Of a stretch of 64,000 nt of DNA, positions 5,176 to 59,803 are shown piece after piece. Position 1 is the stretch's first letter; every line of letters starts with the position of its first letter. Location: the NCBI GenBank assembly GCA_963701935.1, contig CAVPBT010000005.1:189098-253097 (forward strand). The letters run 5' to 3'. This DNA comes from an uncultured Acidobacteriaceae bacterium. GTDB lineage: Bacteria > Acidobacteriota > Terriglobia > Terriglobales > Acidobacteriaceae. The position numbers were made by a program, and so were the translations under genes. The notes under the pieces are model-generated. The model ran no database searches and was not told the origin of the DNA. It saw only the letters and a program-made list of their open reading frames with translations.

Positions 5176-7503
5176 TTACGGCCGCTCCGGCCAAGCGTGC
5201 CGGGGATACCGTCGCATCAATTCCCGCCGCACTTCTGGATAGAGTGGTTCCCAGAACCCAGCTAGATCTGCCGTCGTCTGTACGGCCCGCTGATTCGGGG
5301 CCAGCAAGTGAACCACGACTGGTGTGCGCTCAGGGCCGATGCGGGGCGTATCGTGCATGCCAAAGAAATCCTGCAGCCGAGATGCGATCCAGGGCGGCTT
5401 CCCTCGCTCATAATGAACCTTGGTCTGGCGGCCCTTCTGCAGACGGATGGATTCCGGGGCGAGTTCGCGAAACCGCCGCGCACCGATCTTCTGTTCGAGT
5501 ATCGAGACGAAGTCAGCCGCTGCCTTCCTCAATTCGGCAAAGCTTCGCAGTCCGACGCACAATTCATGCAGTGCCTGCGAAGTATCCGGCGCCTCGAGGC
5601 CAGCAAACTCGACCCGCCCCAGGAAGTGATTCACATCCTCGAGGTCAACGAAACGCTCGATGCCTACTTCCATCGCCTTCTGGGCAAGTAGTTCGGCTGC
5701 GGATTGCGCGTCGGGTAACGCGCCTCGCGATTCCTGAATCACCAGTTCGTCATACAGCAGAGCACTCACCGCATCCACTCGCTCGGCCACCCGATTCCAC
5801 ACCACGCCGGATTGCTCCTTCACGCGATCCGAGAACAGATCGATCAGCCATTCCGGCTCAATGCGCGCAGTCATTCGAACCAGGGGCAGAGGCTTTTCCT
5901 TACGATCTTCGGCATCCACGGCAACCATGAACTCATACCGCGGAGGCTCACTAGCCAATTCCGCCGACCCGCCCGTCGAAAGCAGCATCTGCTTCCCTGC
6001 CCGCAGCCTCGCCACTCGATCCGGAAATCCCGCGAGGACCGACATCAGCAGATCATCATCTTTATGTTTTTTCTTTCCCGAGATTCGCGCAATTCTTCGC
6101 AACTGATCGACGTGCTGCAACACTCGGTGGTCAAGTTCCACATCCATGGCGGCGAGTAGATCACTTTTCTCTGCGCGAACCCCCGACCCAAGAAGAGCTG
6201 CGGCTACGCATCCGGCGTCTCCCACGCCGCGCTCCACGGCTTCTACCAGAATTCGCGACAACCGTGGAGGCAGCGGATACCGCGCCAGACGCTGTGCCAT
6301 CTCTCCCCGAGCGCCGAGGCGATCGAGCAGCAATTCAGCCTGTTCGACTGCCTCCTCGACCGGAGCATCTAACCACGAGATATCGCGGACGTGAGCGATC
6401 CCCATCGCTCGCAGGGAGAGGCAAAGCTGCGATAGATCGCTGCGCAGAATCTCGGGCGCATCCTGCTCCGCCCTGCGCGCGTAATCCTCTTGTGTGTAGA
6501 GTCGCAGCACGCGGCCTGGCGCAGTCCGCCCCGCCCGTCCCGCTCGCTGTTTCGCCGACGCCTTGCTCACTCGGCCAACGTGCAGTGTCGGCAATCCGCT
6601 CCAGGGCGAGTACGCCGCGAAGCGCGCCAGCCCACTATCGATGACGGCGGTCACACCCTCAACCGTGATTGAGCTTTCCGCAACATTGGTGGCCAGAATC
6701 AGTTTTCTTTGAGCCGAAGGCGAGAGTGCCAGATCTTGCTCTCGGGGCGGCAAGCTCCCGTGGAGAGGAAGTAGCAACAATCCAAATTGCCGCGCCAGCG
6801 CGTCGCACGCCCGAATTGCACGACGAATCTCCACCGCGCCCGGCAGAAAGACCAGTGTGTCGCCGGCATGCCCTGTGTCGTTCAGGAGTCCCACCGCACT
6901 CGCCACCTGTGTCTCGAGTGGGTCGGGCGAATACGGCAAATGTTTAATCTCGAGGTCAAACAGTTTCCCTTCCGACCGGATGATGGGACAGCGCTTGAGA
7001 TATTGCGCTACAGGCTCGGCATCGAGAGTTGCTGACATGATGACGATTCGCAAATCGGGCCGCGTCTGCTGCAGTCGTTTCAGCAATGCCAACGCGAGAT
7101 CGCTTTCCAGGTGGCGCTCGTGGAATTCATCGAGCACCACCGCATCCACGCCCTTCAGTTGAGGATCGGAAAGCAGGCGGCGAGTCAGCACGCCTTCGGT
7201 GACAAATCGTAGGCGCGTGCGCGGACCAACCGCTTCTTCGAACCGAATCTGGTATCCGACCGTCTCGCCTACAGGTTCGCCAAGTTCCAACGCAACTCGA
7301 CGCGCCGCCAGCCGCGCCGCAATCCTGCGCGGCTCCAGCACGACGACCTCACCGCTCACCAACCCGAGCAGTGCCGGCGGCACGCGAGTGGTCTTGCCCG
7401 CCCCCGGAGCGGCTACGATCACCAGGTTGGGCTGCAGTTTTAAGGAGTCAAGAATCTCCGGCAGAATGGCATCCACCGGAAGAGGGGTTTTGCGGATCAG
7501 CAC
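5176..7503 (-). CDS. hrpB: ATP-dependent RNA helicase HrpB
   Basis: 775 aa. It has a Walker A (AAPGAGKTT), a DEAH-type box (LDEFHER), MSATL, and the HrpB-type C-terminal tail ...DLAGFWEPLYPEVRRELMRRYPRHAWPE. Confidence 0.9.
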   Translation of the reverse strand: MLIRKTPLPVDAILPEILDSLKLQPNLVIVAAPGAGKTTRVPPALLGLVSGEVVVLEPRRIAARLAARRVALELGEPVGETVGYQIRFEEAVGPRTRLRFVTEGVLTRRLLSDPQLKGVDAVVLDEFHERHLESDLALALLKRLQQTRPDLRIVIMSATLDAEPVAQYLKRCPIIRSEGKLFDLEIKHLPYSPDPLETQVASAVGLLNDTGHAGDTLVFLPGAVEIRRAIRACDALARQFGLLLLPLHGSLPPREQDLALSPSAQRKLILATNVAESSITVEGVTAVIDSGLARFAAYSPWSGLPTLHVGRVSKASAKQRAGRAGRTAPGRVLRLYTQEDYARRAEQDAPEILRSDLSQLCLSLRAMGIAHVRDISWLDAPVEEAVEQAELLLDRLGARGEMAQRLARYPLPPRLSRILVEAVERGVGDAGCVAAALLGSGVRAEKSDLLAAMDVELDHRVLQHVDQLRRIARISGKKKHKDDDLLMSVLAGFPDRVARLRAGKQMLLSTGGSAELASEPPRYEFMVAVDAEDRKEKPLPLVRMTARIEPEWLIDLFSDRVKEQSGVVWNRVAERVDAVSALLYDELVIQESRGALPDAQSAAELLAQKAMEVGIERFVDLEDVNHFLGRVEFAGLEAPDTSQALHELCVGLRSFAELRKAAADFVSILEQKIGARRFRELAPESIRLQKGRQTKVHYERGKPPWIASRLQDFFGMHDTPRIGPERTPVVVHLLAPNQRAVQTTADLAGFWEPLYPEVRRELMRRYPRHAWPERP

Positions 7504-7601
7504 TTCTCATCGAAACATGGCGCTTCGACTGGCGTCAAATGATGTCTTCTTCAGACGCTCGGGCTTTGACTTTTTCTCATGCCCTTCTTAACGTAGTTCA
7601 A

Positions 7602-8267
7602 ATGCCTGCTTACTTTACTCCAGAGCTTTTCCAGTTTCTCACCCGCCTCAAGCGTAACAACAAGCGCGAATGGTTCCAGGCGCATCAGGAAGAATGGGAA
7701 GGTGATGTACGCCAACCGGTGCTGCGATTCATCACGGACTTCGCCGCACCCCTATATGAGATCTCGCCCTATCTGGTCGCTGACCCGCGCCCTTCTCGCG
7801 GCTCCATGTTCCGCATCTACCGCGACACGCGATTCTCCCATGACAAGCACCCCTACAAAACGCACGTCGCCATGCGTTTCTCCCATCGCGGCAAAGATGT
7901 TCATTCGCCCGGTTTCTATCTTCATTTTGAGCCTGGCGGATGCTTCGCCGCTTCCGGTCTCTGGCATCCGGAGCCACCCACTCTGCTGAAAGTACGCAAC
8001 GCGATAGTGTCAACACCAAAGGAATGGCGCGCCGTCCACAAGCTTCTCAACTGGGACGACGCCAGCAAACTCAGCCGGGCGCCGCGCGGCTTCCCCGCCG
8101 ATCACGAATTCGTAGAGGATCTTAAGCTGCGCGATCTCGGCACCGCCGTAAACTTCACGGACCGGGAAGTGTGCAGCCCGAAGTTCATGGCGATCTTCGT
8201 TCAGGCGTGCCGCAAAATGTCCCCGGTCGCCGCGTTCCTCAGCCGCGCAGTTGGACTCAAATTTTAG
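7602..8267 (+). CDS. DUF2461 (TIGR02453) family protein
   Basis: I chose the ATG at 7602; the longer ORF-track frame from 7371 overlaps hrpB. The segments ...FQFLTRLKRNNKREWFQAH...FRIYRDTRFS...PGFYLHF... form the family signature. Confidence 0.8.
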   Translation: MPAYFTPELFQFLTRLKRNNKREWFQAHQEEWEGDVRQPVLRFITDFAAPLYEISPYLVADPRPSRGSMFRIYRDTRFSHDKHPYKTHVAMRFSHRGKDVHSPGFYLHFEPGGCFAASGLWHPEPPTLLKVRNAIVSTPKEWRAVHKLLNWDDASKLSRAPRGFPADHEFVEDLKLRDLGTAVNFTDREVCSPKFMAIFVQACRKMSPVAAFLSRAVGLKF

Positions 8268-8304
8268 GCTACGCAACGTCAGGCGCTAAGAAACACGGGA
8301 CAGG

Positions 8305-10083
8305 TTATGCCACCACTGAAGTATCCGCCTCCCGATATAGCTCGTCGATCTGCTCGCGATAGCGCGCCTCGATCGCCTTGCGCCGAAGCTTCAACGTTGG
8401 GGTCAGAGTGCCGTCGCTGGCGGTAAATTCATCCGGCACTAGCAGGATCTTTTTCAGCGTCTCGTACCGGGCCAGGCCACGGTTCAGTTCGTCCACAATA
8501 CCTTCATAAAGTGCCTTGACCTTGGGGTGGGCCACCAGTTCTTCGCGGGATGAGAAAGATATTTGGTTGCCGCGCGCCCATTCCTCCAACAACACGAACT
8601 CCGGGGAGATAATCACCGACGCAAATTTTCTTCGGTCTCCCAGCACCACCGCAGTTCCAATCATCGCGTTGAGTTTCAGCGAATTCTCGACCGGCTGCGG
8701 CGCAATAAATTTCCCCCCCGACGTCTTCAGCAGATCTTTTTTGCGATCGGTCACCGACAGAAATCCGTCTTCGTCCAGATTGCCAATGTCTCCGGTCTTA
8801 AACCAGCCATCCACGAAGGCGTCCCGCGTCTCTTCGGGCCGGTTCCAATAGGCACGGAAAATCGAAGGACCGCGCACCAGAATCTCCAGATCGTGCGCAA
8901 TCTGCACTTCAACATTGGGCAGGGGACGGCCCACGGTGCCCATCTTGTGAGCGTGCGGCGTGTTGATTGCGATGACCGGTGAGGTCTCCGTCAGACCATA
9001 GCCTTCATGAATCCGAATGCCGATGTTCGCATACCATGCTGCCAGTTCTCTGCCCAGCGGCGCTCCTCCGGAGACGAATATTTCCACTTGTCCACCCATC
9101 CGCGCCCTGACCTGCGAATACACGAGTTTGCGCGCCAACTTCCACGCCACTGATGCCGGCTCCTTGCCCGCCAGAATCTTAGGCCGGTGGGCCCGTCCTA
9201 CGGAAAGAGCCCAACGGTAAATGGTCTGCTTCGCCAGTCCTTTGGCTTTCTGTTCCACCTGGCTGTAGATCTTTTCGTACACACGTGGCACGGCCACGAA
9301 AATCGTGGGCCGGACCTCCATTAACACTTGCGGCAACTCCTCGATGGAAGGGCAATATGCCAGCGTCACGCCGTTATGCAGCAACGCGATATCCGCATGA
9401 CGCGCCGTAACATGCGACAGAGGAAGAAACGACACACTGACGTGGCCAGGATGAATATCGAAACCGTGCAAAGAGTTCAGCACATTCGAAGTCAAATTCC
9501 CATGCGTCAGTTGTACGCCCTTTGAGGTTCCAGTCGTCCCTGACGTATAGATGATGGACGCGAGGTCGTCAGGAGCGACCGCGTGCGCGCGGGCATCGAG
9601 TTCTGGATCTCGTCCAGCCGGGCCCTTGTGCATCAGTCGCTGCATATGTACCGCATCAGGGGTCTCGGCAGGATCCATCAACACGATCTTCTCGATCGGA
9701 GTCTGGTCGCGGATGGACAGGACCTTTTCCAGTTGCTTCTCCGTGGACACCACCACCACTCTTGCTCCTGAATCGCAAAGAATGTAGGCGGTTTGCTGAG
9801 CCGTGAGGGTCGAGTAGATGGGCACAACCGCAAGCCCCAGCATCAGCGATGCAAAATCGGCGACAGCCCACTCCGGCCGATTCTCGCTTAAGATGGCAAG
9901 GCGGTCCCCCTTGTTCAACCCCCACTGGCTGAGCGCCCGCGCCACACCCGCCACATCGCGGTAAAACTGCTGCGAGCTGATGGGAACCCACGCGGAGCCC
10001 TCGCGAGCCAGCATCACGCGATCTTGCCGGCGCTCCACGATGGCGAAGAAGATGTCATTAAGAGTCTGAGGTTTCGTAGGCAT
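8305..10083 (-). CDS. long-chain fatty acid-CoA ligase (AMP-binding family)
   Basis: It carries AMP-binding motifs IYTSGTTGTSKGV, GYGLTETSP and DRKKDLLKTSGGKFIAPQ. I moved the start to the ATG at 10083, which is preceded by GAGGGGGA. Confidence 0.85.
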   Translation of the reverse strand: MPTKPQTLNDIFFAIVERRQDRVMLAREGSAWVPISSQQFYRDVAGVARALSQWGLNKGDRLAILSENRPEWAVADFASLMLGLAVVPIYSTLTAQQTAYILCDSGARVVVVSTEKQLEKVLSIRDQTPIEKIVLMDPAETPDAVHMQRLMHKGPAGRDPELDARAHAVAPDDLASIIYTSGTTGTSKGVQLTHGNLTSNVLNSLHGFDIHPGHVSVSFLPLSHVTARHADIALLHNGVTLAYCPSIEELPQVLMEVRPTIFVAVPRVYEKIYSQVEQKAKGLAKQTIYRWALSVGRAHRPKILAGKEPASVAWKLARKLVYSQVRARMGGQVEIFVSGGAPLGRELAAWYANIGIRIHEGYGLTETSPVIAINTPHAHKMGTVGRPLPNVEVQIAHDLEILVRGPSIFRAYWNRPEETRDAFVDGWFKTGDIGNLDEDGFLSVTDRKKDLLKTSGGKFIAPQPVENSLKLNAMIGTAVVLGDRRKFASVIISPEFVLLEEWARGNQISFSSREELVAHPKVKALYEGIVDELNRGLARYETLKKILLVPDEFTASDGTLTPTLKLRRKAIEARYREQIDELYREADTSVVA

Positions 10084-11032: not shown

Positions 11033-12631
11033 CTACGCGACAATCAATTGGGTCAGAGGATTCTCCTGCATGGTCGCTGGACCGGGCTCGAGCACTCTTT
11101 TCGGTTCCAGCAGAGCAATATTGCTCGCCGCTGGAACCGGTGCGACCGCGGTCTTTGTTATTGCCGGCATAGCGATTGAATTCCCGCGCCGTCTCCGGCG
11201 TACTTTCTTCTTCTGCGGTGGCCCGATTCCAACCGAGTCGCGCAATTCCGTGAAGCTCGTCATCAGCAAGCTCTCCAGCCGTCGCAGATCCGGGGCCGCA
11301 TGCACATCTCCACTGAAACCGAAGTAAACCGCGCCGTTGTAGCTTAAGATTGCGCAGTTCACCGCCATCTCTCCGCCCACCGGAACATACGGATAGCAAT
11401 GCAACATCTTGTGTCCGAGCAGGTAGAGCGGAAACTGCGGCCCGGGCACATTCGTGCATACCAGGTTGAAGGGTGTGATGGGCAGTTGGCTCGCGATCGG
11501 ACCGGCCATGCCTTGCACGGAAGTCGGGAACATCCCAATCAGACCGCCCGCCAGGCTAACGAGTTCAGCGGCGTGCACGCGCTTCAGGAATTCGGTTCGA
11601 TGGTGTACGCCTGCCAGCAACTTTCGCGGGCTCCGAATATCTAGCGGAATGGTGACAGGAACCAGCGAAATGCGGTTCCCCAACTCCGTGGTGCTGACGT
11701 CGCCGCGCAAGTTGACAGGAACCATGATCCGAAGCAGTTTTCCCTTCACGCGGTCGCCATGCAGTTCACAGTAACGGCGGATGGTCGCAGTCACCAAAGC
11801 GAGAATCACATCATTGACACTGGTTCCGCTCTTATGACGGATGGCTTTGACGTCCGCCAGCGGAAGTTCGGCGGTGGCAAATTTCTGAGGCCCGGTATAG
11901 ATCACGTTGAACCGCAGTCGCTCGGTAAACGCCGTGATCTCGGGTAGCAGGCCCACAAACTCGTCGCTGGCCACGCTGTCGCCGTTCGCAGCGGCACGTT
12001 CCGTCATGCTCAACAGATCGGTGAGTGCGGAGAGAATCCGCTTCACGAAATCAGAATAGGATTCAACGAACCCTGCGGTCAGCGTCGTCAGCGGGTCGCG
12101 CGGCCGGGGAACCTGCAACTTAATCTTCTTCTTGGGCAAGCGCGGCGCGTCCGGGCTCGCATCCAGAAGCACATTCATGATGCCGACACCCGCAATGCCA
12201 TCCGCCAGGCAGTGGTGCAGTCGGATAATGAGCCCGGTGCGAGCCCCCTTGAGCCCGTGAATGAGTGTGAGATCCCACAATGGGTGTTGCCGGTCCATCA
12301 CGGTGCCAAAAAGCTTTCCGGCAATCCCCATCAACTCTATTTCGGTACCGTGTTTGAGCGTCACCTCGCGCACGTGACGGCGCACATCGAATTCCGGATC
12401 GTACTCCCAACTGGGAAGCCCGAGCCCGAACGGTGCTGGTACGACGCGCTTCAGATAGCGAGGAAGAAGCGGCAGCTTCGTCTCGATGAACTGGACGCAT
12501 TCTTCAAATCCAACTTCGCCCTCGAAGATGCATACGCTTGCTACATTGAGCGGCATGCCTTCCCGCTCAAGATGCAGGAAGACCGTATCACCCCAGGAAA
12601 GGCGGTCACTCTGTTGCTGGTTCTGCATCAC
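11033..12631 (-). CDS. wax ester synthase/diacylglycerol acyltransferase (WS/DGAT)
   Basis: 532 aa. It has the active-site HHCLADG (HHxxxDG) motif, N-terminal ...DTVFLHLE... and C-terminal ...NVPGPQFPLYLLG... typical of the family. Confidence 0.85.
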   Translation of the reverse strand: MMQNQQQSDRLSWGDTVFLHLEREGMPLNVASVCIFEGEVGFEECVQFIETKLPLLPRYLKRVVPAPFGLGLPSWEYDPEFDVRRHVREVTLKHGTEIELMGIAGKLFGTVMDRQHPLWDLTLIHGLKGARTGLIIRLHHCLADGIAGVGIMNVLLDASPDAPRLPKKKIKLQVPRPRDPLTTLTAGFVESYSDFVKRILSALTDLLSMTERAAANGDSVASDEFVGLLPEITAFTERLRFNVIYTGPQKFATAELPLADVKAIRHKSGTSVNDVILALVTATIRRYCELHGDRVKGKLLRIMVPVNLRGDVSTTELGNRISLVPVTIPLDIRSPRKLLAGVHHRTEFLKRVHAAELVSLAGGLIGMFPTSVQGMAGPIASQLPITPFNLVCTNVPGPQFPLYLLGHKMLHCYPYVPVGGEMAVNCAILSYNGAVYFGFSGDVHAAPDLRRLESLLMTSFTELRDSVGIGPPQKKKVRRRRRGNSIAMPAITKTAVAPVPAASNIALLEPKRVLEPGPATMQENPLTQLIVA

Positions 12632-12955: not shown

Positions 12956-15623
12956 TCAGACAGTAATGTGCTCGACGGTGCTGCTCACCGTCCCCGCACC
13001 TCGTCCTTCATAAGCCTTCCAGAACAACTCGACCAGTTCCGTCATCAGAGGCATCCGGGGGTTCGAACGCCACGACGGATCTTCAAACGCAATTCGGGCC
13101 AGTTCGGGGACGGCCCGTTCGAATTCCTCTTTGGAAATTCCCAGTTCAGCGATCGATCGCGGAAATCCCAACAAATCGAGCAACTGCTCTGTCGCCGCGA
13201 TCAGGTTGTTTACCTTTTCATCGACGGTATGTCCGCCCAGACTCAGCTGATCCGCGACCGTCGCGTACTTCTTGTGTGCCGTGTACCCTTTCGTGTAAGG
13301 CGACGGCATGAACTTGGTGGGGACCGCGGCGTTGTAAGCAATCACGTGCGGCAGCATGAGCGCGTTGGCGCGCCCGTGCGCGACGCCGAAGCGTGCTCCA
13401 AAAGCGTGAGCCAGGGCGTGGTTCACTCCTACCGAAGCATTCGAGAACGCCATCGCCGCAATGCAGGCGGCATTGTGCATCATAGATCGAGCTTCTTCAT
13501 CCCGGGGATGCTCATAGGCAATCGGCAGATACTTGAATACCAACCGAATCGCCTGCATGGCGCTGGAATCGGTGTAGGGCGAAGCATAGTTCGAAACTCC
13601 TGCCTCCAAGGCATGGGTCAGGCAATCAATCCCGGTATCCGCGGTTAAGCCCTTCGGCATGGTCATCACGAACTGCGGATCGACAATGGCGACATCCGGG
13701 GTCAGGGAGTAATCGGCCAGCGTGACTTTGCGCCCGCTTTCCTTGTCTGTCAGGACCGCGAACGGTGTGACTTCGCTTCCTGTGCCGCTGGTGGTTGAAA
13801 TCGCGATGAGTCTCGCCTGGTTCGCTTTCTCCGTTGGATAGCGCGCGACCCGCTTGCGCAAATCCAGGAAGGGCGCCGCCAGATATTCCAGATCGGCCTC
13901 CGGCGATTCGTACTTGAGCTTCATGATCTTCGCCGCGTCAATGACCGACCCGCCGCCCAGCGCGATGATCTGGTCCGCCTTATAGAAATTGAGCGCCTCC
14001 ACTCCCAACGCGATGACCTTCACTTCGGGCTCTGCATCCGGAATCACCTGCACATGGACGTGAGTCTTGGGACAGATGTGGCGCCGAACGATATCAACAT
14101 GTCCCATCTGCTCCAGGAGCGGGCTGGTCACGATGATGGTGGATAGCGACGGAAACTGCCGCAGGTTCTCCACCGCATTCATGTTGAAGTAGATCTGATT
14201 GGGAACCCGGAACCACATATGGTTTTGTGTCCTCCGAGCCACGCGCTTGATGTTGAGGTAATGAAAAACGTTGACATTATCGGTGGTGCTGTTGCCGCCG
14301 CCGGTTCCGCATCCGAAGGAAAACGTCGGCACCAGGTCGTTGTAAACCGCTCCCAGCGCTCCGATCGATCCCGGTGAATTGACGATGATGCGTCCCGCAT
14401 TGATCACTTGGCCAAATTTGCGAATGACCTCTTCGTTGCGCGAGAACACAACCGCCGTATGCCCAATTCCCCCGGCATGGTTCACGTCGACACATACTCG
14501 CAGTGCCTCAGCTACGGATTTCGCTCGATAGACCGCCAGTACCGGAAATAACTTCTCGACCGACAGCGGATGCTCGCGGCCCACACCCTGAATCGGCGCA
14601 ATCAGCAGCTTGGTATCAGGCTTCACCTTCAGGCCGACGAAGCGTGCGATATCAGCAAGCCTTCTGGCCAACCGCCATGGGCTGCATGAATCCGGTCTCC
14701 GGATCAATTACCGTGCGCTCGAGCAGCTTCGTTTCTTTGTCGTTGCAGATGTGTGCTCCCAGGTCCGCGAATTTCTTCAGCACGGCGTCATAAATCTCGT
14801 CGTCGATGACCACCGTCTGTTCAGACGCGCAAATCGTTCCGTTGTCGAACGTCTTGGAAACGATGATGTCCACCACGGCCGTGTTCACGTCGGCCGTCTT
14901 CTCCAAATAAACTGGCGTATTACCAGCCCCAACACCCAAGGCCGGTTTGCCGGAGCTGTAGGCGGCCTTGACCACGCCCGGTCCACCGGTGGCGTCGATC
15001 AGCCCGATATCCTTGTGCTTCATCAGGTAGGCGTTGTCGGGAAGCGTCGGCGATTCGAGGCAAGTAAACACGCCCTCCGGCGCACCGTGTTTCACGGCCG
15101 CCTCATACATGATCCTTACCGCTTCTGCACAGCAATGCCACGCCTTCGGGTGCGGACTGAAAATAACCGCGTTCCGCGTCTTGATGGCCATGATGCACTT
15201 GAACAAGACCGTGGATGTGGGATTCGTAATCGGAGTCAGCGAGAAGAGAACGCCGATCGGTTCCGCCATCTCGATCAAATTGCGCTCCGGAATCTCGCGG
15301 ATCACGCCGACCGTGCGCTTGTCCTTCACGTAGTTGTAGACAAACTCGCTGGCCACCATGTTCTTGATGACCTTGTCTTCCAGCACGCCGAGCCGGGTTT
15401 CCTCCACCGCCAGCCGCGCAAGATATTGAGCTTGTGCCAGCCCCGCCAGAACCATCGGTTTAACGATCCGATCGACATCCTCCTGAGTAAACTGGCTGAA
15501 CACCGCAGCAGCGGTTCTGGCCTGACTGACCAGTCCTTCGAGGTAGGCGATCCGTTCCGCGCTCAGACCTTCAACCGCCAGCGGAATTTGAACTCGTTCT
15601 TTTACGACGTCAGCTACGGTCAT
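12956..15623 (-). pseudogene. adhE: bifunctional acetaldehyde-CoA/alcohol dehydrogenase AdhE, interrupted by one frameshift (as sequenced)
   Basis: Two abutting ORFs (15623-14652, 323 aa; 14707-12956, 583 aa) overlap in different frames. The joined length is 2668 nt (3n+1). Motifs include GGIGHTAVVFS, GCGTGGGNSTTDNV and ISTTSGTGSEVTPFAV. The inferred junction is ...PMAVGQK/LADIARFVGLKVKPDTK. Confidence 0.85.
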
Positions 15624-19492: not shown

Positions 19493-19703
19493 ATTCCTTC
19501 TCCCTCAGAACAATTGACTCGTGGGTTTCGGTTCAGCTCAGGACTCAAGCATCAGTCAGCGGCGACGGGGTTCATCTCTCCCTGCCGAGCCTCGCTCCCG
19601 AGATCGTGCGCAATGGCGCCCTCGGGCGAAAGTCTGTCTCTCGCCCGAAGACGCATAGGCCTTAATCAAGGCTCTGAACACTGTTAACAACAGATCCGGC
19701 CCC

Positions 19704-20618
19704 TCAGGCTACGGCCGCTGCCGCCTTCTTCACCGGCCGACGGGTATGGCGCTCCACCTTTGCCGCGGGCTTCGCTCCACCCGGTGTTTTCACCATGACG
19801 TCCATCAACTGCTTCTGGGCATCGACGTAGCTCTTTACTGCCTCCCGCGTGAGTTCGGTTACGGGAAGAAACGGAAACGGCTTCAGCAATTCCAGGGTCT
19901 TGCCTGCCGTTTTCACACCGGTGTTCATCTGCCGCCCCACAACGTCCATCAACCGCTTCTGCGCTTCCAGGAACGCATCCGTGGCTTTGCGCGCCAGTTC
20001 CGGCAACTCGGTCTTCTTCATTTTCTTTCCAGCGTTGCTGTGTTTGGTACCTGTCGCCCTCGCAGTCTCGTCGGCAAGGACGTCCATAAACTTCTTCTGC
20101 GCCTTGACGAAGTTCTCCATGCCCTCGCGGGCTAGATCGACCGCATGCTCCGGCTGGTAGGGCTTGCCGGCCTTGGCGGACTCTACCCAGGCATGCGTTT
20201 GCTTGCCGGCGATCTTCAGATACTCTTCCTGCATCTCGATGAACGTCTCCACGCTGCGCCGCAGCAGATCGGTCATCGCGTGCGCCGCGGGCCAGTCGCC
20301 CATCCGTTCCTTCACACCTGTGATCAGAAGTTCATTCTGCTGTTTGCCCAGTTCGAGCAGAACCTTCTGTCCTTCCAGGAAATTCGTCAGGCCATCTTCT
20401 GCGATCTCGCCGAGAATGGCGGTAGGAGAATGATGCGGGTCCGAGAGTTGCTGACGTACGGCGTGCATCACGCTGGCATTCTGCCGCATGGCCAGGTCGA
20501 TCAGGATCCGTTGCGTCGCGAATAATGTTTGCGCCCCTTGCTGCGCCCAACCCGAAAGCAGAGAGAGCGTCGACGACTCTTTCGGGTGAGTCGCTTCATG
20601 CCTTGTTGCCGCTGCCAT
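19704..20618 (-). CDS. phasin-like repeat protein (paralogue 1)
   Basis: The ATG at 20618 follows a GGAGG. The longer MLQCSN... start is the operator palindrome read as codons. Helical modules F-x-x-AQK-x-[LF]-MDV are repeated (NFVKAQKKFMDV, AFLEAQKRLMDV, SYVDAQKQLMDV). The protein has a basic tail and lies next to phaR. Confidence 0.6.
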   Translation of the reverse strand: MAAATRHEATHPKESSTLSLLSGWAQQGAQTLFATQRILIDLAMRQNASVMHAVRQQLSDPHHSPTAILGEIAEDGLTNFLEGQKVLLELGKQQNELLITGVKERMGDWPAAHAMTDLLRRSVETFIEMQEEYLKIAGKQTHAWVESAKAGKPYQPEHAVDLAREGMENFVKAQKKFMDVLADETARATGTKHSNAGKKMKKTELPELARKATDAFLEAQKRLMDVVGRQMNTGVKTAGKTLELLKPFPFLPVTELTREAVKSYVDAQKQLMDVMVKTPGGAKPAAKVERHTRRPVKKAAAAVA

Positions 20619-20632
20619 AAAATGCCTCCGAT

Positions 20633-20647
20633 TGCTGCATTGCAGCA
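20633..20647. promoter_or_regulatory. perfect palindrome TGCTGCATTGCAGCA, candidate PhaR operator (copy 1)
   Basis: This 7-1-7 palindrome has a CTGC-N3-GCAG core. It lies between the predicted -10 and the RBS of the phasin-like gene, about 70 nt from the divergent phaR start. Confidence 0.6.
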
Positions 20648-20655
20648 TCAGCTAA

Positions 20656-20684
20656 ACTATACGAAGAGAAGGGTCTTGTGTCAA
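20656..20684 (-). promoter_or_regulatory. sigma70-type promoter of phasin-like gene 1
   Basis: On the minus strand it reads TTGACA (20684-20679), a 17-nt spacer, then TATAGT (20661-20656). The operator begins 8 nt further downstream. Confidence 0.5.
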
Positions 20685-20718
20685 GATATTCCTGCATCCT
20701 TGTGCAAGGCAGCATGCA

Positions 20719-21255
20719 ATGGCGTCCATGAAACCCTCAACCATCCTCGTCAAGAAGTACGGCAATCGACGGTTGTACGACACAACCAGCAGCCGTTACG
20801 TGAACCTTGACGATCTTGCGGCTCACATCCGCGCGGGCCGCGAGGTCAAAGTCGTCGACGCCAAGACCGGGCAAGACCTGACCCGCGTCCTGTTGACGCA
20901 GATCATCACCGAAGACGCCAGGGACAAGCCGACGGGCTTACCCCTGGAACTGCTGCGGCAACTCATCATCGCGTCCGATGAGGTGCGGCAGGAATTTCTC
21001 ATGTGGTATCTGAAGTCCGCGTTTGACACGTATGAGAAGGTGCAGGATGCCGTGCAGAACCGCCTGAGCGAGGTCCAGTCCGCCATCCTCTCCCCCGTCG
21101 ATATGATGAAACGCTTTCTGGGAACGGGCGCCTCTCCGCCTTCGCGCGCGGACTCGGAGCCGGAGGTTGAGGCCCTGCGCAAGCGCGTCGCGGAACTCGA
21201 GGCCCGTCTGAAAAAGCCCGCGCCCGCGAAGCGCCGCGCCCGCAAGAAGCATTGA
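20719..21255 (+). CDS. phaR: polyhydroxyalkanoate synthesis repressor PhaR
   Basis: 178 aa. The N-terminus ...ILVKKYGNRRLYDTTSSRYVNLDDLAAHIRAGREVKVVDAKTGQDLTRVLLTQII... is the PHB_acc_N/PhaR DNA-binding signature. Confidence 0.85.
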   Translation: MASMKPSTILVKKYGNRRLYDTTSSRYVNLDDLAAHIRAGREVKVVDAKTGQDLTRVLLTQIITEDARDKPTGLPLELLRQLIIASDEVRQEFLMWYLKSAFDTYEKVQDAVQNRLSEVQSAILSPVDMMKRFLGTGASPPSRADSEPEVEALRKRVAELEARLKKPAPAKRRARKKH

Positions 21256-21383: not shown

Positions 21384-21426
21384 TTGGACAGGCAAGGCAC
21401 TCGGGGTATAATTTTGCAGTGCAGCA
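21384..21426 (+). promoter_or_regulatory. sigma70-type promoter with overlapping degenerate PhaR-type site
   Basis: TTGGAC (21384-21389), a 17-nt spacer, then TATAAT (21407-21412). TTTTGCAGTGCAGCA (21412-21426) matches the palindrome at 12 of 14 arm positions. Confidence 0.5.
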
Positions 21427-21435
21427 ACCGCCCTT

Positions 21436-22284
21436 TTGGCGCCTCGACGCGCCGATCGGGCTGACCCAGGGACGAACTTGCGGCGTAAATTGAAAAAAGC
21501 AGCAGCGCGTCCTTCTCCGGCCAAGCGGCGCAAGCCTGCTCCCTACCCCAAAGTCAACACTTCCAGTGCTTGGACTGAGGCGCTCTTCGGCGCTGAGATT
21601 CTTCTGCTGCACGCCACGCCGGTGTACTACGGCCTGGGAGTGCCGCGCGGCGATGGCTCCGCTGTCGTCATCATTCCCGGTTTTCTTGGTACTGATCTTT
21701 ACCTTACCGAGTTGCATGCATGGCTGCGGCGGATCGGATATCGCCCTTACTTTTCCGGTATCGGCATCAATGCTGAGTGTCCCAACCTGCTCATCCAGCG
21801 CCGGCTGAATCAGACGATCGAAAAAGCGCTGTCGGAAACAGGACGCAAGATTCACCTGATCGGTCACAGCCTCGGCGGCGTAATCGCGCGATCCGTGGCG
21901 GGCGATCGGCCGAAAGACGTGGCCTCGGTCATCACTCTGGCCGCCCCGATCCGTGGCACAGTTGCGAATCGAGCCGTGCTTCGCGCCGCCGAAGCTGTTC
22001 GCCTCCGCATTCTCGAGGAACACGGCAAGGGAGTTCTTCCGGACTGTTATACCGGACGCTGCACCTGCAATTTTCTCGATTCTCTTCACCGCCGGGTTGC
22101 CAGCAAGATGCTCGAGACGGCTATCTACACGCGCCAGGACGGCATCGTCGACTGGCGCTATTGCATGACCATGGATCCTGAGAAGGACGTGGAAGTTCCG
22201 GGAACCCACATCGGAATGGCATTCAACCCGGCAGCCTATGCCGTGGTTGCGGAGCGCCTCGCCAAAGCGCAATCGACCGAATAG
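21436..22284 (+). CDS. alpha/beta hydrolase (lipase/esterase-like)
   Basis: It has the nucleophile elbow GHSLGG inside ...KIHLIGHSLGGVIARSVAG.... The basic N-terminal region has a TTG start, so the start is uncertain. Confidence 0.75.
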   Translation: MAPRRADRADPGTNLRRKLKKAAARPSPAKRRKPAPYPKVNTSSAWTEALFGAEILLLHATPVYYGLGVPRGDGSAVVIIPGFLGTDLYLTELHAWLRRIGYRPYFSGIGINAECPNLLIQRRLNQTIEKALSETGRKIHLIGHSLGGVIARSVAGDRPKDVASVITLAAPIRGTVANRAVLRAAEAVRLRILEEHGKGVLPDCYTGRCTCNFLDSLHRRVASKMLETAIYTRQDGIVDWRYCMTMDPEKDVEVPGTHIGMAFNPAAYAVVAERLAKAQSTE

Positions 22285-22313: not shown

Positions 22314-23274
22314 TCAGCCCACCATCTCTAGAACCGCGCCGGTAGCGGTTTCCAATCTCTCGGTCTGTCCGCTCGCTGTCTGCAACAGAACGGACGCGGA
22401 TGCCAGGCTGTTGTTCACCACTTCGAAGCTGCCCGTGCAATCGGTCTTCATATAAGGAAGCCGATGCAGGCTTGAGCCATGCCTGTCGAGCGCCGCCTCC
22501 AGCCGGAGCCCCTCGCGTGCCACGCAAGAAAAATTCCACCGGAAAGGGCTCCTTACTGACGCTGGATTCCTTCAACTTGCGAAACAAATATTTCTGCCTG
22601 TCGTGCCACAGCACCGCTTTGCGAAAAACCAGCCCAAACGGCATCTCGTAGACCAGAGCCTCTAATGTGCTTGCCGGTTGGTCGGGGCGGAGGAAATATG
22701 CGTGCGTCCATCTCCAGAAATTGCGATGCCGGTATCCACAGTTGTGCCCCTGCACTCCGAAACCCACAGGCTCACCCGCGAAGGGTTTCCCATCAAGCGT
22801 GATCTGCCCGGAGAAAAGCGCGTCCGAGTGCGGCGTGCGTGAAAAGCCGATCCAGCCTTTATCGCTGAGTGTCACCGCAAATGTGGACCGATAGCGCAGA
22901 TTCCATGAGATTGTGTGGCCGTCAACTTCCATCGATCCCCTGCAGGAATCGTCTCCGATGAAGTTGTCGCCGGCGCAAAAGTGAAATGGACTCAGGCCTC
23001 TCCGGCTGATGTCTAACCCCGCCAGCGGAAATCCCTGAATAAAGCTCTGCGGTTTTCCACCCGCCGGGAACCATGTCGCCCACACTTGCACGGGCATCCC
23101 TCGAGGGTTTCCGGCGCAACCGCCTCGTCCCGGATTCATCAACAAATAGCGAAACCACCAAGCTCCGCTTGCGTCCGCCAATCCCACGCGAAGAAACCAG
23201 ACCTCATAGCGGCGCTTTACCGACGGTCCCGAAAATACTTCGTTCAGAGAGGCCACGACTTTCTCCAAAGACAC
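22314..23274 (-). pseudogene. hypothetical beta-rich protein (tentatively tocopherol-cyclase/AttH-like), one frameshift as sequenced
   Basis: The first ~250 codons of the 778-aa ORF (from 23274) look protein-like: YEVWFLRV, WWFRYLLMNP, GVQGHNCGYRHRNFWRWTHAYF. The plausible C-terminus continues in the 22523-22314 frame (WNFSCVAREGLRLEAAL...). The total length is 961 nt (3n+1). Confidence 0.5.
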
Positions 23275-23369: not shown

Positions 23370-25056
23370 ATGCTGGATGCGTCCGCCATCGCAGCGGGCC
23401 TCCTCTTGCTCGCGCCCAACCAGTTGCGCACCGCTCTGGAGAATTTTCTGCCTCAAAGCGCGACTCCGGCCGAAAAGATCCGACTCATTGAAGACGCCCT
23501 CCAAAGCCCCGCCGCTCAATCGGTTCGCGACACGATGGCGCGCTGGATCGTCGACGAGATCGTTCCGGTCGATGCCCTGGTTCCGGAAGCCTACAAGAAT
23601 TGGCGTCCGCCGGTCCGCGACGCCATGATGTTCGTAGTCACGCACCTCTCGCCCGCTCGCCTCGCCCCAAAACTCTTGGAGCAAATCGAACTCCCAACCA
23701 ACACGTCGCCCGAAGTGCGTCTGTTGCGCCTCATTGCAAAGGTCCCAGGCCTGCAGAAACTCGGGCAGGTCATCGCCCGGAACCAGCATCTCCACCCTGC
23801 GCTCCGCCGGGCCCTCTCCAAACTGGAAAACGGGATTCGTGACGTACAACCCGAAGACATTCGCGTCATTGTTGAAAAGATGCTGGGGCCAAAGTTCAAA
23901 ACCTACGCCGTAGAAATCTCACCCACAATAATGAAGGAAGCGAGCGTCAGCGCAGTCATTCGCTTCACTTGGCAGAATCCCAAGTCCGGGAAACGCGAGC
24001 GCGGCGTCTTTAAAGTCCTCAAGCCTCACATCCCCGAATACTTCGCCGAAGATATGGATTACCTCCAACGACTGGCTGAATACTTCGGCGATCACCACCA
24101 CACCTACGGAATTGCGCCCCACCTCATTGCCGACACGTTTCGCAAAGTCCGTCGCTTGCTGCGGCACGAGGTCAATTTCTCTCGTGAACAGAAGACCTTG
24201 GTTGAAGCCGGGGTTCTCTATCGTGGGTTCCCCCGTGTGCGCATTCCAAAATTGATTCAGCCCTTGTGCACGCCCACGATCACCGCGCTCACGGAAGAGC
24301 CAGGGATTAAGGTAACCAGCGCCGCGGCCCGCCTGCCTGACTCACGTCGCCGGGAGGTAGCCGAGCAACTCGTGGAGTCCTTGGTCGCCGTGCCCCTTTT
24401 CTCCTCGACCCAGGATGCCATCTTTCACGGCGATCCCCACGCCGGCAACCTGCTTTACCATAACAAGACGCGTGAACTCGTTATCCTCGATTGGGCGCTG
24501 CGCGAACGTCTGAGCCGCGAACAGCGCCGTCATCTCGCCCTCTTGTTCCTCATGGTCAGCCTGCGCGACCCAGTCGGCACGGCCAACGAAATCGTGGCGC
24601 TCAGTCAACCGCGCATCAGAATGCTCCTCACCTCGGGGCCGCAAAGTACGCGACACCGTCTCCAAGTTCCTCGACGAGTTGCCGCCTTCCCGCATGCCCA
24701 GCGGAGCCGACGCCATGCGACTTCTGGAGCGCGTCGCCATCACCGGCGTTAAGTTCCCCAGTTCGCTGATCATGTTGTCGAAAGTGATGTTTACGCTGGA
24801 AGGGATACTGGGCGACATCGTCGGCGCGGACACCGGAATGGGCTTCACGCTCGCGCGCCATGTCGCCCAGCATTGGATTGCCAACCGCTCTGCGTTCCGT
24901 TCGCCACTCATGACCCGCGACTGGTTTGCGCTTCAGTGCAGCGCGCTGCTCTATACCAGCCGTGTGTGGCTGCAGTGGGAGCAGGCGCTCCTGAACCGCT
25001 TGCCTCAATCGAAACAATTGCTCAAGGCCACGGGGACGGAAGGGCGGCCGTCGTAA
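23370..25056 (+). pseudogene. ABC1/UbiB (AarF) atypical kinase family protein, one frameshift as sequenced
   Basis: Motifs are VFKVLKPHIPEYF..., FHGDPHAGNLL and ILDWAL. The frame breaks near the GGGG run at 24635-24638. The real C-terminus continues in the 24679-25056 frame (...RKVRDTVSKFLDELPPSRMPSGADAMRLLERV...). The total length is 1687 nt (3n+1). Confidence 0.8.
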
Positions 25057-25088: not shown

Positions 25089-25844
25089 TTAAACCGCCAC
25101 AGTCTTCGGCCGATGCGCTGTGCGAGCCCGGGCATGTTTGGGAGCCCGTCCGTTGTGCTTTTTCGGCGGCTTGATGATCGACCCAAAGATCGACGTCTCC
25201 GAGTCAAAGAAGTTCTTCACGCCTTGGCCGGTTCGAGTCGCAATTGGTAAGAGCTGAGAAGGCGACACCAGCCCCATCGTTCGAGTCGCCGCGTCCAGGT
25301 TCACGTTCATCTGCTGGCCCATGACGTCGAGCAAACGCTTCTGCGCCTCGACAAAAGCATTTCCCGCCTCGCGCGCCAGTTGCGCCAGTTCAGTCTTCTT
25401 CGCCGCCTTATCTTCGTGAGGCTTCTTGCCGCCGGTTGCCCTCGCGGCCTCCTGCGTCACCGCTTCGAGGAATTTCTTCTGAGCGCGAGTAAAGGTCTCC
25501 ATTCCCTCGCGGGCAAATTCGACGACCTGAGCCGCGCGGTCATCCTTCCCCGCTTTCTCTGACTCCAGCCAATGCAGCGTCTGTTTGCTGGTGGTGGTCA
25601 GCAGCTCCTGCTGCATGCCGAAGAGCGTATCCAGGCTGCGCTGTACGAGGCCTGTCACTGCAACTGCCGGCATGAAGCCGCCAATCCGCTCTTTGACTCC
25701 ATTGCAGATAATGTCGTTCTCCTGTTGTGCCAGGTTGAGAAAAGCTCGCTGTGCTTCCACGAGACTCGACGTTCCCTCAACTGCCAACTCGGTGAGAATC
25801 GCCAGGGGGGATTCATTTTCGTGGTTCTTGGTGTGGGTTGGCAT
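25089..25844 (-). CDS. phasin-like repeat protein (paralogue 2)
   Basis: The ATG at 25844 follows a GGAGG. It has the same repeat modules as paralogue 1 (TFTRAQKKFLEAV, AFVEAQKRLLDVM) and a basic tail. The upstream operator copy explains the ORF-track extension. Confidence 0.6.
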   Translation of the reverse strand: MPTHTKNHENESPLAILTELAVEGTSSLVEAQRAFLNLAQQENDIICNGVKERIGGFMPAVAVTGLVQRSLDTLFGMQQELLTTTSKQTLHWLESEKAGKDDRAAQVVEFAREGMETFTRAQKKFLEAVTQEAARATGGKKPHEDKAAKKTELAQLAREAGNAFVEAQKRLLDVMGQQMNVNLDAATRTMGLVSPSQLLPIATRTGQGVKNFFDSETSIFGSIIKPPKKHNGRAPKHARARTAHRPKTVAV

Positions 25845-25855
25845 AATGCCTCCAT

Positions 25856-25870
25856 TGCTGCATTGCAGCA
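25856..25870. promoter_or_regulatory. perfect palindrome TGCTGCATTGCAGCA, candidate PhaR operator (copy 2)
   Basis: It is identical to copy 1, and the shared identity extends over the 18-mer ATTGCTGCATTGCAGCAT (25854-25871). Confidence 0.6.
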
Positions 25871-25878
25871 TTAATTGA

Positions 25879-25907
25879 AATGTAGTATCCACGCGCCTTC
25901 CAGTCAA
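25879..25907 (-). promoter_or_regulatory. sigma70-type promoter of phasin-like gene 2
   Basis: On the minus strand it reads TTGACT (25907-25902), a 17-nt spacer, then TACATT (25884-25879). The operator follows after 8 nt. Confidence 0.5.
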
Positions 25908-26030
25908 TAGTCGTTGTACCTGATTTGCGTCACATCACTGCAAAGTGTGACCACCATCACCTCAATTAGTTGAACGAAAAAGGAATCTATTCTCGGAGAA
26001 AAGTGGGTAGTGCGACCCTGAACCGAAGCA

Positions 26031-26492
26031 ATGGACAAACTTCCCGAAGTCGAAACCGCGAAAGCATTGATGACCGAGGCCACGGCGTGGTCGGTAATGA
26101 AATGGCTACGCGAAAAGAAGTTCGTGCGCAAAACGGCGGACCAGGCAAACGCCGCCCTCGACCAAGCGAGCCAGGCTGTCCGGGAACGTTGGCCGGAGCC
26201 GGTCAGATCGGCCTACGAGACGCTGGCTACTCAGACCGCCGGAACCGTCGCCGCGAGCCGCCCGAAAACCTCGTCCGCGATTGACCCAGAGGCACTGACC
26301 GTCGCCGCCAGGAGCCACGAGGCGGATGACGAAGCCTACCGCGCCCGAATGGATGCAGAAAAATCGTTCGACGACGCCGAGCGCCAACTCAGTACCAGCC
26401 TTGCTCGCGAAGGATGTCGAAAAGCAATCTACTCCTGGGAGCTACACGAGAAAGCCATTCGCAAAGCGGAAGCACTCATTCATTCGAAGTGA
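26031..26492 (+). CDS. hypothetical helical protein
   Basis: 153-aa ORF with coding-like composition. It is divergent from phasin-like gene 2. I recognise no motif. Confidence 0.55.
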   Translation: MDKLPEVETAKALMTEATAWSVMKWLREKKFVRKTADQANAALDQASQAVRERWPEPVRSAYETLATQTAGTVAASRPKTSSAIDPEALTVAARSHEADDEAYRARMDAEKSFDDAERQLSTSLAREGCRKAIYSWELHEKAIRKAEALIHSK

Positions 26493-59732: not shown

Positions 59733-59803
59733 AATTCTCGATAAGGATCCGAACCAAACGCGCGATTATTGCGTCGCAAAAACCGCGACGCTTCGCGCGG
59801 TTC

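Follow-up and report, generated by a model that had tools for sequence, protein, structure and literature searches.

A 64,000-nucleotide stretch of DNA from an uncultured Acidobacteriaceae bacterium (contig CAVPBT010000005.1, positions 189,098 to 253,097; hereafter, the window) carries two identical 15-bp palindromes in front of two phasin-like genes, and these palindromes are very probably operators of the PhaR-family repressor encoded beside the first copy (20719-21255). The original prediction described two promoter-operator cassettes, referred to here as cassettes 1 and 2. Both are real, but the description was incomplete in that distal boxes and a third cassette had been overlooked. The whole system is larger and comprises five boxes, O1 to O5 (given throughout without strand), and three promoters.

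The 18-mer ATTGCTGCATTGCAGCAT is present in the window as two exact copies (20631-20648 and 25854-25871), as had been reported, and within each lies the perfect 7-1-7 palindrome TGCTGCA-T-TGCAGCA, corresponding to the proximal operators O1 of cassette 1 (20633-20647) and O2 of cassette 2 (25856-25870). With up to three mismatches allowed, 0.04 matches to the 18-mer are expected, and the observed count was reached by 0/100 dinucleotide shuffles. Perfect 7-1-7 palindromes are not rare as such (three in the window versus 3.9 expected); what goes beyond chance is the recurrence of one sequence in two of the three, at the same position before paralogous genes. The MLQCSN extensions at the N-termini of the open reading frames (ORFs) had been suspected to be spurious, and they do correspond to the palindrome read as codons (ATG-CTG-CAA-TGC-AGC-AAT).

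Both 18-mer cassettes are composed of a sigma-70-type -10 box, the palindrome and then a ribosome-binding site. In cassette 1, the minus-strand promoter of phasin-like gene 1 (20656-20684; 11/12 consensus positions) has the -35 hexamer TTGACA (20684-20679), a 17-nt spacer and the -10 hexamer TATAGT (20661-20656), followed by 8 nt, the palindrome, 3 nt (ATC), the Shine-Dalgarno sequence GGAGG (20629-20625, read from the sequence and kept as CCTCC in the alignment of relatives), 6 nt and the ATG at 20618. In cassette 2, the minus-strand promoter of phasin-like gene 2 (25879-25907; TTGACT-17-TACATT, 9/12 consensus positions, with the -35 kept in the alignment) is followed by 8 nt, the palindrome, 2 nt (AT), GGAGG (25853-25849), 4 nt and the ATG at 25844. 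The hexamer pairs, spacings, GGAGG elements and start codons can all be read directly from the sequence as first described, and both promoters were recovered by a promoter scan for which 0.2-0.4 hits are expected. Transcription is predicted to start about 7 nt past the -10, so that the proximal box would span roughly +2 to +16 of the transcript; for the predicted promoter, this agrees with the proposed repressor geometry in which the palindrome covers the +1 region.

The phaR homologue (20719-21255, plus strand, 178 aa; the ATG at 20728 may be the conserved start) is divergent from phasin-like gene 1 and begins 71 nt from the palindrome, in keeping with the earlier estimate of about 70 nt. Its product contains PF07879, the DNA-binding domain of PhaR (91.4 bits, E = 3.9e-26, cut-off 25), and shares 30-45% identity with PhaR proteins annotated in Azospirillum, Sinorhizobium, Rhizobium and others. 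The C-terminal 65 aa comprise a predicted helix and then a basic tail. Judged by its sequence, the regulator is a divergent member of the PhaR family.

The cassettes were compared across 80 related loci from different species-level genomes, obtained by scanning a genome collection with PhaR (PhaR 74-96% identical; 1.49 Mb in total). The palindrome, with at most one mismatch, lies 85-100 bp upstream of phaR in 80/80 loci, and a second copy is found about 5 kb downstream in 51/80; conservation of the cassette upstream of orthologues, an early suggestion for a check, is therefore complete at the first gene and extends to 51 loci at the second. The 12 arm positions TGCTGC / GCAGCA are 99.9% conserved, with variation at the three central positions (A/G, any base and T/C, respectively). 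Conservation of the majority base amounts to 99.6% for the -35 hexamer and 95% for the -10 hexamer, against 77% for other intergenic columns and 65% for third-codon positions of phaR. The concern that the motif might be a generic genomic repeat could be dismissed, since matches with up to one mismatch in the related DNA lie almost only at promoter positions. Outside the three promoter positions only two such matches were seen, the exceptions being a coding coincidence (LQCS) in the ABC1 gene of locus L014 and an intergenic pair in locus L026. Because the arms are so well conserved and stray matches in 1.49 Mb are limited to these two, the palindrome must be under strong, sequence-specific selection. 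The intergenic pair (L026, 5926-6050) consists of two PhaR-type boxes, TGCTGCGGTGCAGCA and AGCTGCAATGCAGCG, about 100 bp apart and without a clear adjoining ORF; the gene for a patatin-like lipase (7399-8724) is about 1.4 kb downstream.

Three published PhaR boxes are available for comparison. The box of Rhodobacter sphaeroides is CTGC-N3-GCAG (5'-CTGCNNNGCAG-3', as cited in PMC12542648), that of Ralstonia eutropha is YTKN-TGCR-N-YGCA-NMAR, from DNase footprints (PMC12849132), and that of Sinorhizobium meliloti is WNWD2N-YGCR-N-YGCR-NH2WNW, supported by electrophoretic mobility shift assay (EMSA) with mutated sites (PMC12542648). The PhaR box that is cited for R. sphaeroides FJ1 and Paracoccus denitrificans, 5'-CTGCNNNGCAG-3', is found in exact form within both O1 and O2 as CTGCATTGCAG (PMC12542648), and all 8 specified positions of the R. 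sphaeroides box, in the form cited there, are matched. On the R. eutropha consensus, O1, O2 and O3 each reach 13/14, and on that of S. meliloti 15/16, these being proteobacterial consensus sequences applied to an acidobacterial host. The suggested match of the core CTGC-N3-GCAG to alphaproteobacterial PhaR operators thus proved accurate, with two further published consensus fits in addition. Five positions in the window reach 13/14 on the R. eutropha consensus, three of which are the promoter sites around phaR. Over the 1.49 Mb of relatives the same consensus gave 145 hits, and 128 of them are located no more than 200 nt upstream of phasin-like genes, the hydrolase gene described below, phaR or a gene for a 153-aa protein (hyp153). 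In plasmid-borne phaR loci (Azospirillum, Chlorohelix), many chance matches to YGCR-N-YGCR occur owing to the high G+C content.

A degenerate box is present on the far side of each phasin-like promoter. O4, the distal box of cassette 1 (20700-20715; TTGTGCAAGGCAGCAT), has the core TGCA-A-GGCA centred at 20707 and scores 12/14 on the R. eutropha consensus, and O5, the distal box of cassette 2 (25926-25934; TGCGTCACA), has the core TGCG-T-CACA within a 17-mer (25922-25938) centred at 25930. The centre of each lies 23 nt upstream of the edge of the -35 hexamer and 67 bp away from the centre of its proximal box. O4 is found at a fixed position with up to two mismatches in 77/80 sequences (79 loci and the window), and its offset from O1 is 69-71 in 77/80. 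The offset of O5 from O2 is 68-71 in 40/53 sequences, with the consensus TTGTGCG-Y-CGCRTCAA. O4 is, in addition, 4-13 nt ahead of the phaR start and, because of this placement, may give weak autoregulation of phaR, as reported for other PhaR systems (PMC12542648); the promoter of phaR itself could not be placed with confidence in the window. O5 is situated in the intergenic region common to phasin-like gene 2 and the divergent hyp153 gene (26031-26492, plus strand), which encodes a protein of 153 aa with no Pfam hit and is kept in 47/80 loci. The hyp153 gene may be a further member of the regulon.

The third cassette belongs to a lipase-like gene. Its plus-strand promoter (21385-21412; TGGACA-16-TATAAT, 11/12 consensus positions, and TTGGAC...TATAAT in relatives) is abutted at the -10 by a single operator, O3 (21412-21426; TTTTGCAGTGCAGCA), in which the core TGCA-G-TGCA and the right arm are perfect and the left outer arm is degenerate. 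O3 is retained with up to three mismatches in 43/79 sequences scored (78 loci and the window); in the aligned rows shown it comes immediately after a -10 of the TATAAT type, usually as TATAAT-TGTGCAGTGCAGCA. The 17-mer ATTGTGCAGTGCAGCAA is common to the O3 of relatives and the box of S. meliloti SMa1961, and the window O3 equals the latter box at 17/21 positions. The SMa1961 box, ATATTGTGCAGTGCAGCAACA, was bound efficiently in EMSA (PMC12542648). The gene downstream (21436-22284, plus strand; present in 78/80 loci) encodes an alpha/beta hydrolase with a GHSLGG serine motif and matches to the Pfam families PGAP1, LCAT, DUF676 and lipase. In an independent gene call, its start corresponds to 21490. 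Among solved structures, the closest are triacylglycerol lipases and not polyhydroxybutyrate (PHB) depolymerases.

In the circuit that we infer from this arrangement, with binding by PhaR, transcription starts, titration and the chemical nature of the inclusion all predicted, each sigma-70-type phasin-like promoter would be bracketed by two PhaR boxes, one proximal and perfect and the other distal and degenerate, the latter centred about 58 bp upstream of the start; the promoter of the lipase-like gene would carry the single box O3 fused to its -10. When no storage inclusions are present, PhaR dimers would occupy the boxes and prevent RNA polymerase from binding, from forming an open complex or from escaping the promoter. 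Cooperation between the distal and proximal sites is probable, with the distal box probably stabilising binding. As hydrophobic inclusions form, PhaR would be titrated onto their surface, allowing the coat proteins and the hydrolase to be expressed, and once that surface is covered, free PhaR would return to the DNA.

Several observations weigh against the assignment to PhaR. The score of the regulator with the TIGR01848 equivalog model (96.4 bits, profile positions 2-105 of 107 covered) falls below the cut-off of 109.45, and PF05233, the C-terminal PHB accumulation regulatory domain, was not detected in it (E <= 0.01). Both putative coat proteins fail every curated phasin model. The polyhydroxyalkanoate (PHA) genes phaC, phaA and phaB were not found in the 64-kb window nor within 10 kb of phaR in the 80 relatives; tblastn searches of the window and the 80 loci, for which Azospirillum phbA and a PhaC-like protein served as queries, returned neither a thiolase nor a PhaC. 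The distal boxes are less secure as PhaR sites, because they are one position off the core consensus. Finally, the proximal box may have an additional role at the RNA level, because it is predicted to be transcribed.

That last point can be extended to a palindrome acting mainly as RNA, namely as a 5'-terminal leader hairpin (6-bp stem, 3-nt loop) that would stabilise the mRNA or modulate access to the Shine-Dalgarno sequence 2-3 nt downstream. The predicted transcript does fold as UGCUGC-AAU-GCAGCA, variation in relatives is found only at the three loop positions, and the outer arm in distant coat-family members differs in a symmetrical way, with C to T matched by G to A, so that pairing is kept. 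However, the folding energies are no better than those of shuffled sequences (z = -0.67 and -1.31), and the stem is fixed in sequence with no compensatory change across 80 species. Moreover, O3 has the same core without a usable left arm and straddles the -10 and start site, O4 and O5 lie upstream of the -35 and outside the phasin transcripts and yet share the core, and the sequence equals experimentally proven protein-binding sites. With insignificant z-scores and three boxes (O3, O4 and O5) that cannot be leader hairpins, the hairpin was rejected, and we regard a mainly RNA-based function as very improbable.

It is similarly improbable that the palindrome serves a different, unlinked transcription factor and lies beside phaR by coincidence. 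Being simple, TGCA-rich palindromes could be recognised by other dimeric regulators, but phaR adjoins the palindrome in 80/80 loci, three independently derived PhaR consensus sequences are matched and the known promoter architectures of PhaR targets are reproduced. Given that the two downstream genes are paralogues, gene duplication probably included the promoter, and the two copies might in principle be a passive relic of that event or a generic repeat with no regulatory role. This is contradicted by conservation: the 18-mer has stayed identical although the proteins share only 43% identity and the flanks have diverged, the arms are kept across 80 species (99.9%), and the two matches mentioned above are the only ones outside promoter positions. 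We give such a relic next to no credence. An operator recognised by the adjacent PhaR homologue accommodates all of the boxes and is very probably the correct reading.

Phasin-like gene 1 (19704-20618, minus strand) encodes 304 aa with six long predicted helices and the motif F..AQK.LLDL, and phasin-like gene 2 (25089-25844, minus strand) encodes a paralogue of 251 aa. The start of the former is supported by a near-identical ENA contig (2-nt offset between phaR and the hydrolase gene) with independent gene calls, in which the 304-aa product corresponds to the ATG at 20618. Of the earlier label, phasin-like paralogues, the second word is justified (43% identity over 237 aa, E = 4e-67), but the first finds no match above threshold in Pfam or TIGRFAM. 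Protein 1 scores 16.5 bits with Phasin_2 (PF09361; threshold 24.9) and has a sub-threshold match to PHA_synth_III_E as well, and protein 2 scores 16.4 bits with TIGR01841 (threshold 30.2). Among 34 family members, weak matches to PHA_synth_III_E (the PhaE model) were obtained for 31 and to Phasin_2 for 19 (best E = 2e-4). The family is built from six repeats of about 45 aa bearing the motif F..AQK.LLDL, and it is small (512 representatives among 1.84 billion) and annotated as hypothetical in the source records. The structure model is all-helical and of low confidence (predicted local distance difference test score, pLDDT, 38), which is too poor for a fold search to be usable. Profile and sequence searches of the PDB returned nothing for the coat protein, and neither did tblastn against plasmids. 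For comparison, PhaP1 and PhaP2 of S. meliloti are smaller, at 148 and 114 aa (PMC12542648).

Five of 26 divergent homologues (alignment A2, P0170-P0266) match the Pfam family ApoB100_C, the C-terminal region of apolipoprotein B100 (best E = 1.7e-7); this may reflect common amphipathic lipid-binding helices or a compositional artefact. Distant members of the coat family (L083-L085) have a cassette of TACAGT, TGTTGCR-A-CGCAACA, TGGAGG and ATG, in which the outer arm differs and the core TGCR-N-YGCA is kept. These cassettes (L083, 728-760; L085, 3436-3468) are on short contigs from which phaR is absent, and in L085 the start codon as called is upstream of the box, an artefact of the kind that produced the MLQCSN extension. 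On sequence grounds, the distant cassettes fit an operator co-evolving with a dimeric reader; taken alone, they would be compatible with an RNA role also. Basic tails rich in K, R, P and A, such as KKPAPAKRRARKKH and RRPVKKAAAAVA, are seen at all four proteins of the module: at the C-terminus of PhaR (about 21200-21255), at the C-termini of the coat proteins (19704-19760 and 25089-25160) and at the N-terminus of the hydrolase (21436-21540). Histone-like tails tether PHA granules or lipid droplets to the nucleoid, and the basic tails of the module resemble these.

The nature of the inclusion may be judged from the gene neighbourhood. A WS/DGAT protein (wax ester synthase and diacylglycerol acyltransferase) is encoded on the minus strand at 11033-12631, with both Pfam domains (PF03007, E = 2.8e-46; PF06974, E = 3e-26) and the HHxxxDG active-site motif, here HHCLADG at residue 139; it is syntenic in 59/80 loci. 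Next to it, an AdhE-like aldehyde/alcohol dehydrogenase gene (12956-15623, minus strand; syntenic in 62/80 loci) is frameshifted in the window, as deduced from the single 888-aa ORF of relatives, and the enzyme could supply fatty alcohols. The ORF of its aldehyde-dehydrogenase part (14652-15623) overlaps that of the Fe-alcohol-dehydrogenase part (12956-14707), and the frameshift near 14652-14707 is probably a long-read assembly error. Further conserved neighbours are an acyl-CoA dehydrogenase, an acyl-CoA synthetase and an ABC1 kinase (51/80 loci), and a patatin-like lipase is found in inspected loci where the lipid block is not adjacent. In scans of the window and relatives, the regions upstream of the WS/DGAT and AdhE-like genes showed no PhaR box, and these biosynthetic genes are therefore not obviously direct targets of PhaR.

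Because the conserved neighbours are lipid genes and no PHA genes are nearby, it is conceivable, with a likelihood a little short of even, that the PhaR switch of Sulfotelmatobacter-like Acidobacteriota has, together with its coat proteins, been co-opted for wax-ester or triacylglycerol bodies in place of PHA granules, with PhaR sensing a neutral-lipid surface and co-regulating two six-repeat amphipathic coat proteins and a triacylglycerol-lipase-like enzyme. Neutral-lipid storage in Acidobacteriota has been described as unexplored (PMC10351704), and a literature search for PHA or wax esters in Sulfotelmatobacter returned nothing relevant. The operators could equally work as described within an ordinary PHA-granule circuit, for which phaC and phaE would be encoded elsewhere in the genome and the lipid neighbourhood would be incidental; to this we likewise assign not quite an even chance. 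PhaR senses PHB in every organism studied (PMC12542648), the coat family has its weak PhaE-model (31/34) and Phasin_2 (19/34) matches, and a few Acidobacteria are reported to have class III PhaC (PMC8312272). Against a PHA circuit stand the absence of phaC, phaA and phaB within 10 kb in 81 sequences, the conserved linkage to WS/DGAT, the AdhE-like reductase, the lipase-like hydrolase and the ABC1 kinase or patatin, and the resemblance of the regulated hydrolase to triacylglycerol lipases rather than PHB depolymerases. Overall, the gene context favours wax-ester or triacylglycerol bodies no less strongly than PHA.

The closest precedents are found in Proteobacteria. As in Cupriavidus necator (Ralstonia eutropha) H16, the regulator has a PHB_acc_N DNA-binding domain and the operators are degenerate palindromes with a single central base and the core TGCR-N-YGCA; the promoter layout recalls that of R. 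eutropha phaP1, which has one site, BS2, around the start and an auxiliary one, BS1, immediately upstream of the -35 (PMC12849132). Unlike this betaproteobacterial system, the window belongs to an acidobacterial host, its proximal site is a perfect 15-bp palindrome, its targets are six-repeat proteins of 251-304 aa outside Pfam Phasin_2, phaCAB is not nearby and the PHB-binding C-terminal domain is not detectable. The AniA/PhaR regulon of S. meliloti (phaP1, phaP2, SMa1961 and phaZ) shares the motif YGCR-N-YGCR and the use of two boxes at phasin promoters, and its PHB-depolymerase gene SMa1961, like the hydrolase gene here, carries just one box, located between -10 and start site (PMC12542648). 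Weak binding to the phaR promoter was also reported for S. meliloti (PMC12542648). In contrast to the S. meliloti phasin boxes, which flank the -35, those of the window bracket the whole promoter (at about -58 and +9); in addition, the extended AT-rich arms are only partly present, and the hydrolase resembles a triacylglycerol lipase and not a PHB depolymerase. The PhaR proteins of R. sphaeroides FJ1 and P. denitrificans are cited as repressing a phasin gene and phaR itself (PMC12542648). As far as described there, these belong, unlike the present locus, to alphaproteobacterial pha clusters with phaC and phaZ adjacent.

The MLDSR-MLDS pair of Rhodococcus is a lipid-droplet regulator and coat protein, in which an inclusion-binding DNA-binding protein controls the gene for the coat. 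PhaQ-PhaP of Bacillus follows the same logic with a regulator family non-homologous to PhaR (PMC12542648). The protein families of both pairs are unrelated to PhaR, whereas the regulator of the window is a true PHB_acc_N protein; the inclusion it senses may differ. What is known already, then, is the regulator family, the motif and the promoter logic; the phylum, the unclassified coat family, the lipase-like third target and the lipid-storage gene context are different. No description of PhaR or phasin regulation in Acidobacteria was found in the literature searched.

The PhaR box of Alpha- and Betaproteobacteria is thus kept almost base for base in Acidobacteriota, as are the promoter layouts, and this preservation supports the view of PhaR as an ancient sensor-regulator (discussed in PMC12542648). 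The motif can be used to predict PhaR regulons in uncultured soil and peat bacteria, and it offers a testable role for a coat-protein family now annotated only as hypothetical. Given the linkage to wax-ester and triacylglycerol genes without nearby PHA genes, the PhaR circuit may govern neutral-lipid storage. A preprint has used the PhaR domain as a proxy for PHA producers and found PhaR in 16% of soil Acidobacteria (10.1101/2024.12.02.626346). If the neutral-lipid reading is true, the PhaR Pfam domain would be an unreliable marker of PHA producers in soil surveys, and surveys that rely on it, such as this one, would need qualification.

Some further features of the window are of note. An intergenic site at 59766-59782, TTATTGCGTCGCAAAAA, contains the palindrome TTGCG-T-CGCAA and scores 13/14 on the R. 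eutropha consensus; it is located about 40 nt upstream of an amino-acid permease in an aminotransferase/aldehyde-dehydrogenase cluster and could be a further PhaR target or the site of another regulator. Between phasin-like gene 1 and the acyl-CoA dehydrogenase gene, a long G+C-rich hairpin without a U-tract (CTTCGGGCGA...TCGCCCGAGG) is present on the minus strand at 19540-19700, a region in which a simple terminator scan found no terminator. The ABC1/UbiB-like kinase gene (23370-25056, plus strand) is split, with the C-terminus encoded in the ORF 24679-25056; relatives have one ORF of about 561 aa, and a second frameshift near 24680-24750 is likely. Between the hydrolase and the ABC1 kinase, a conserved hypothetical protein of about 313 aa with no Pfam hit is encoded at 22333-23274 (minus strand) in an arrangement shared by 64 loci. 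The frame of this gene runs stop-free antisense through the hydrolase gene and phaR to 20938, giving rise to a spurious ORF of 778 aa.

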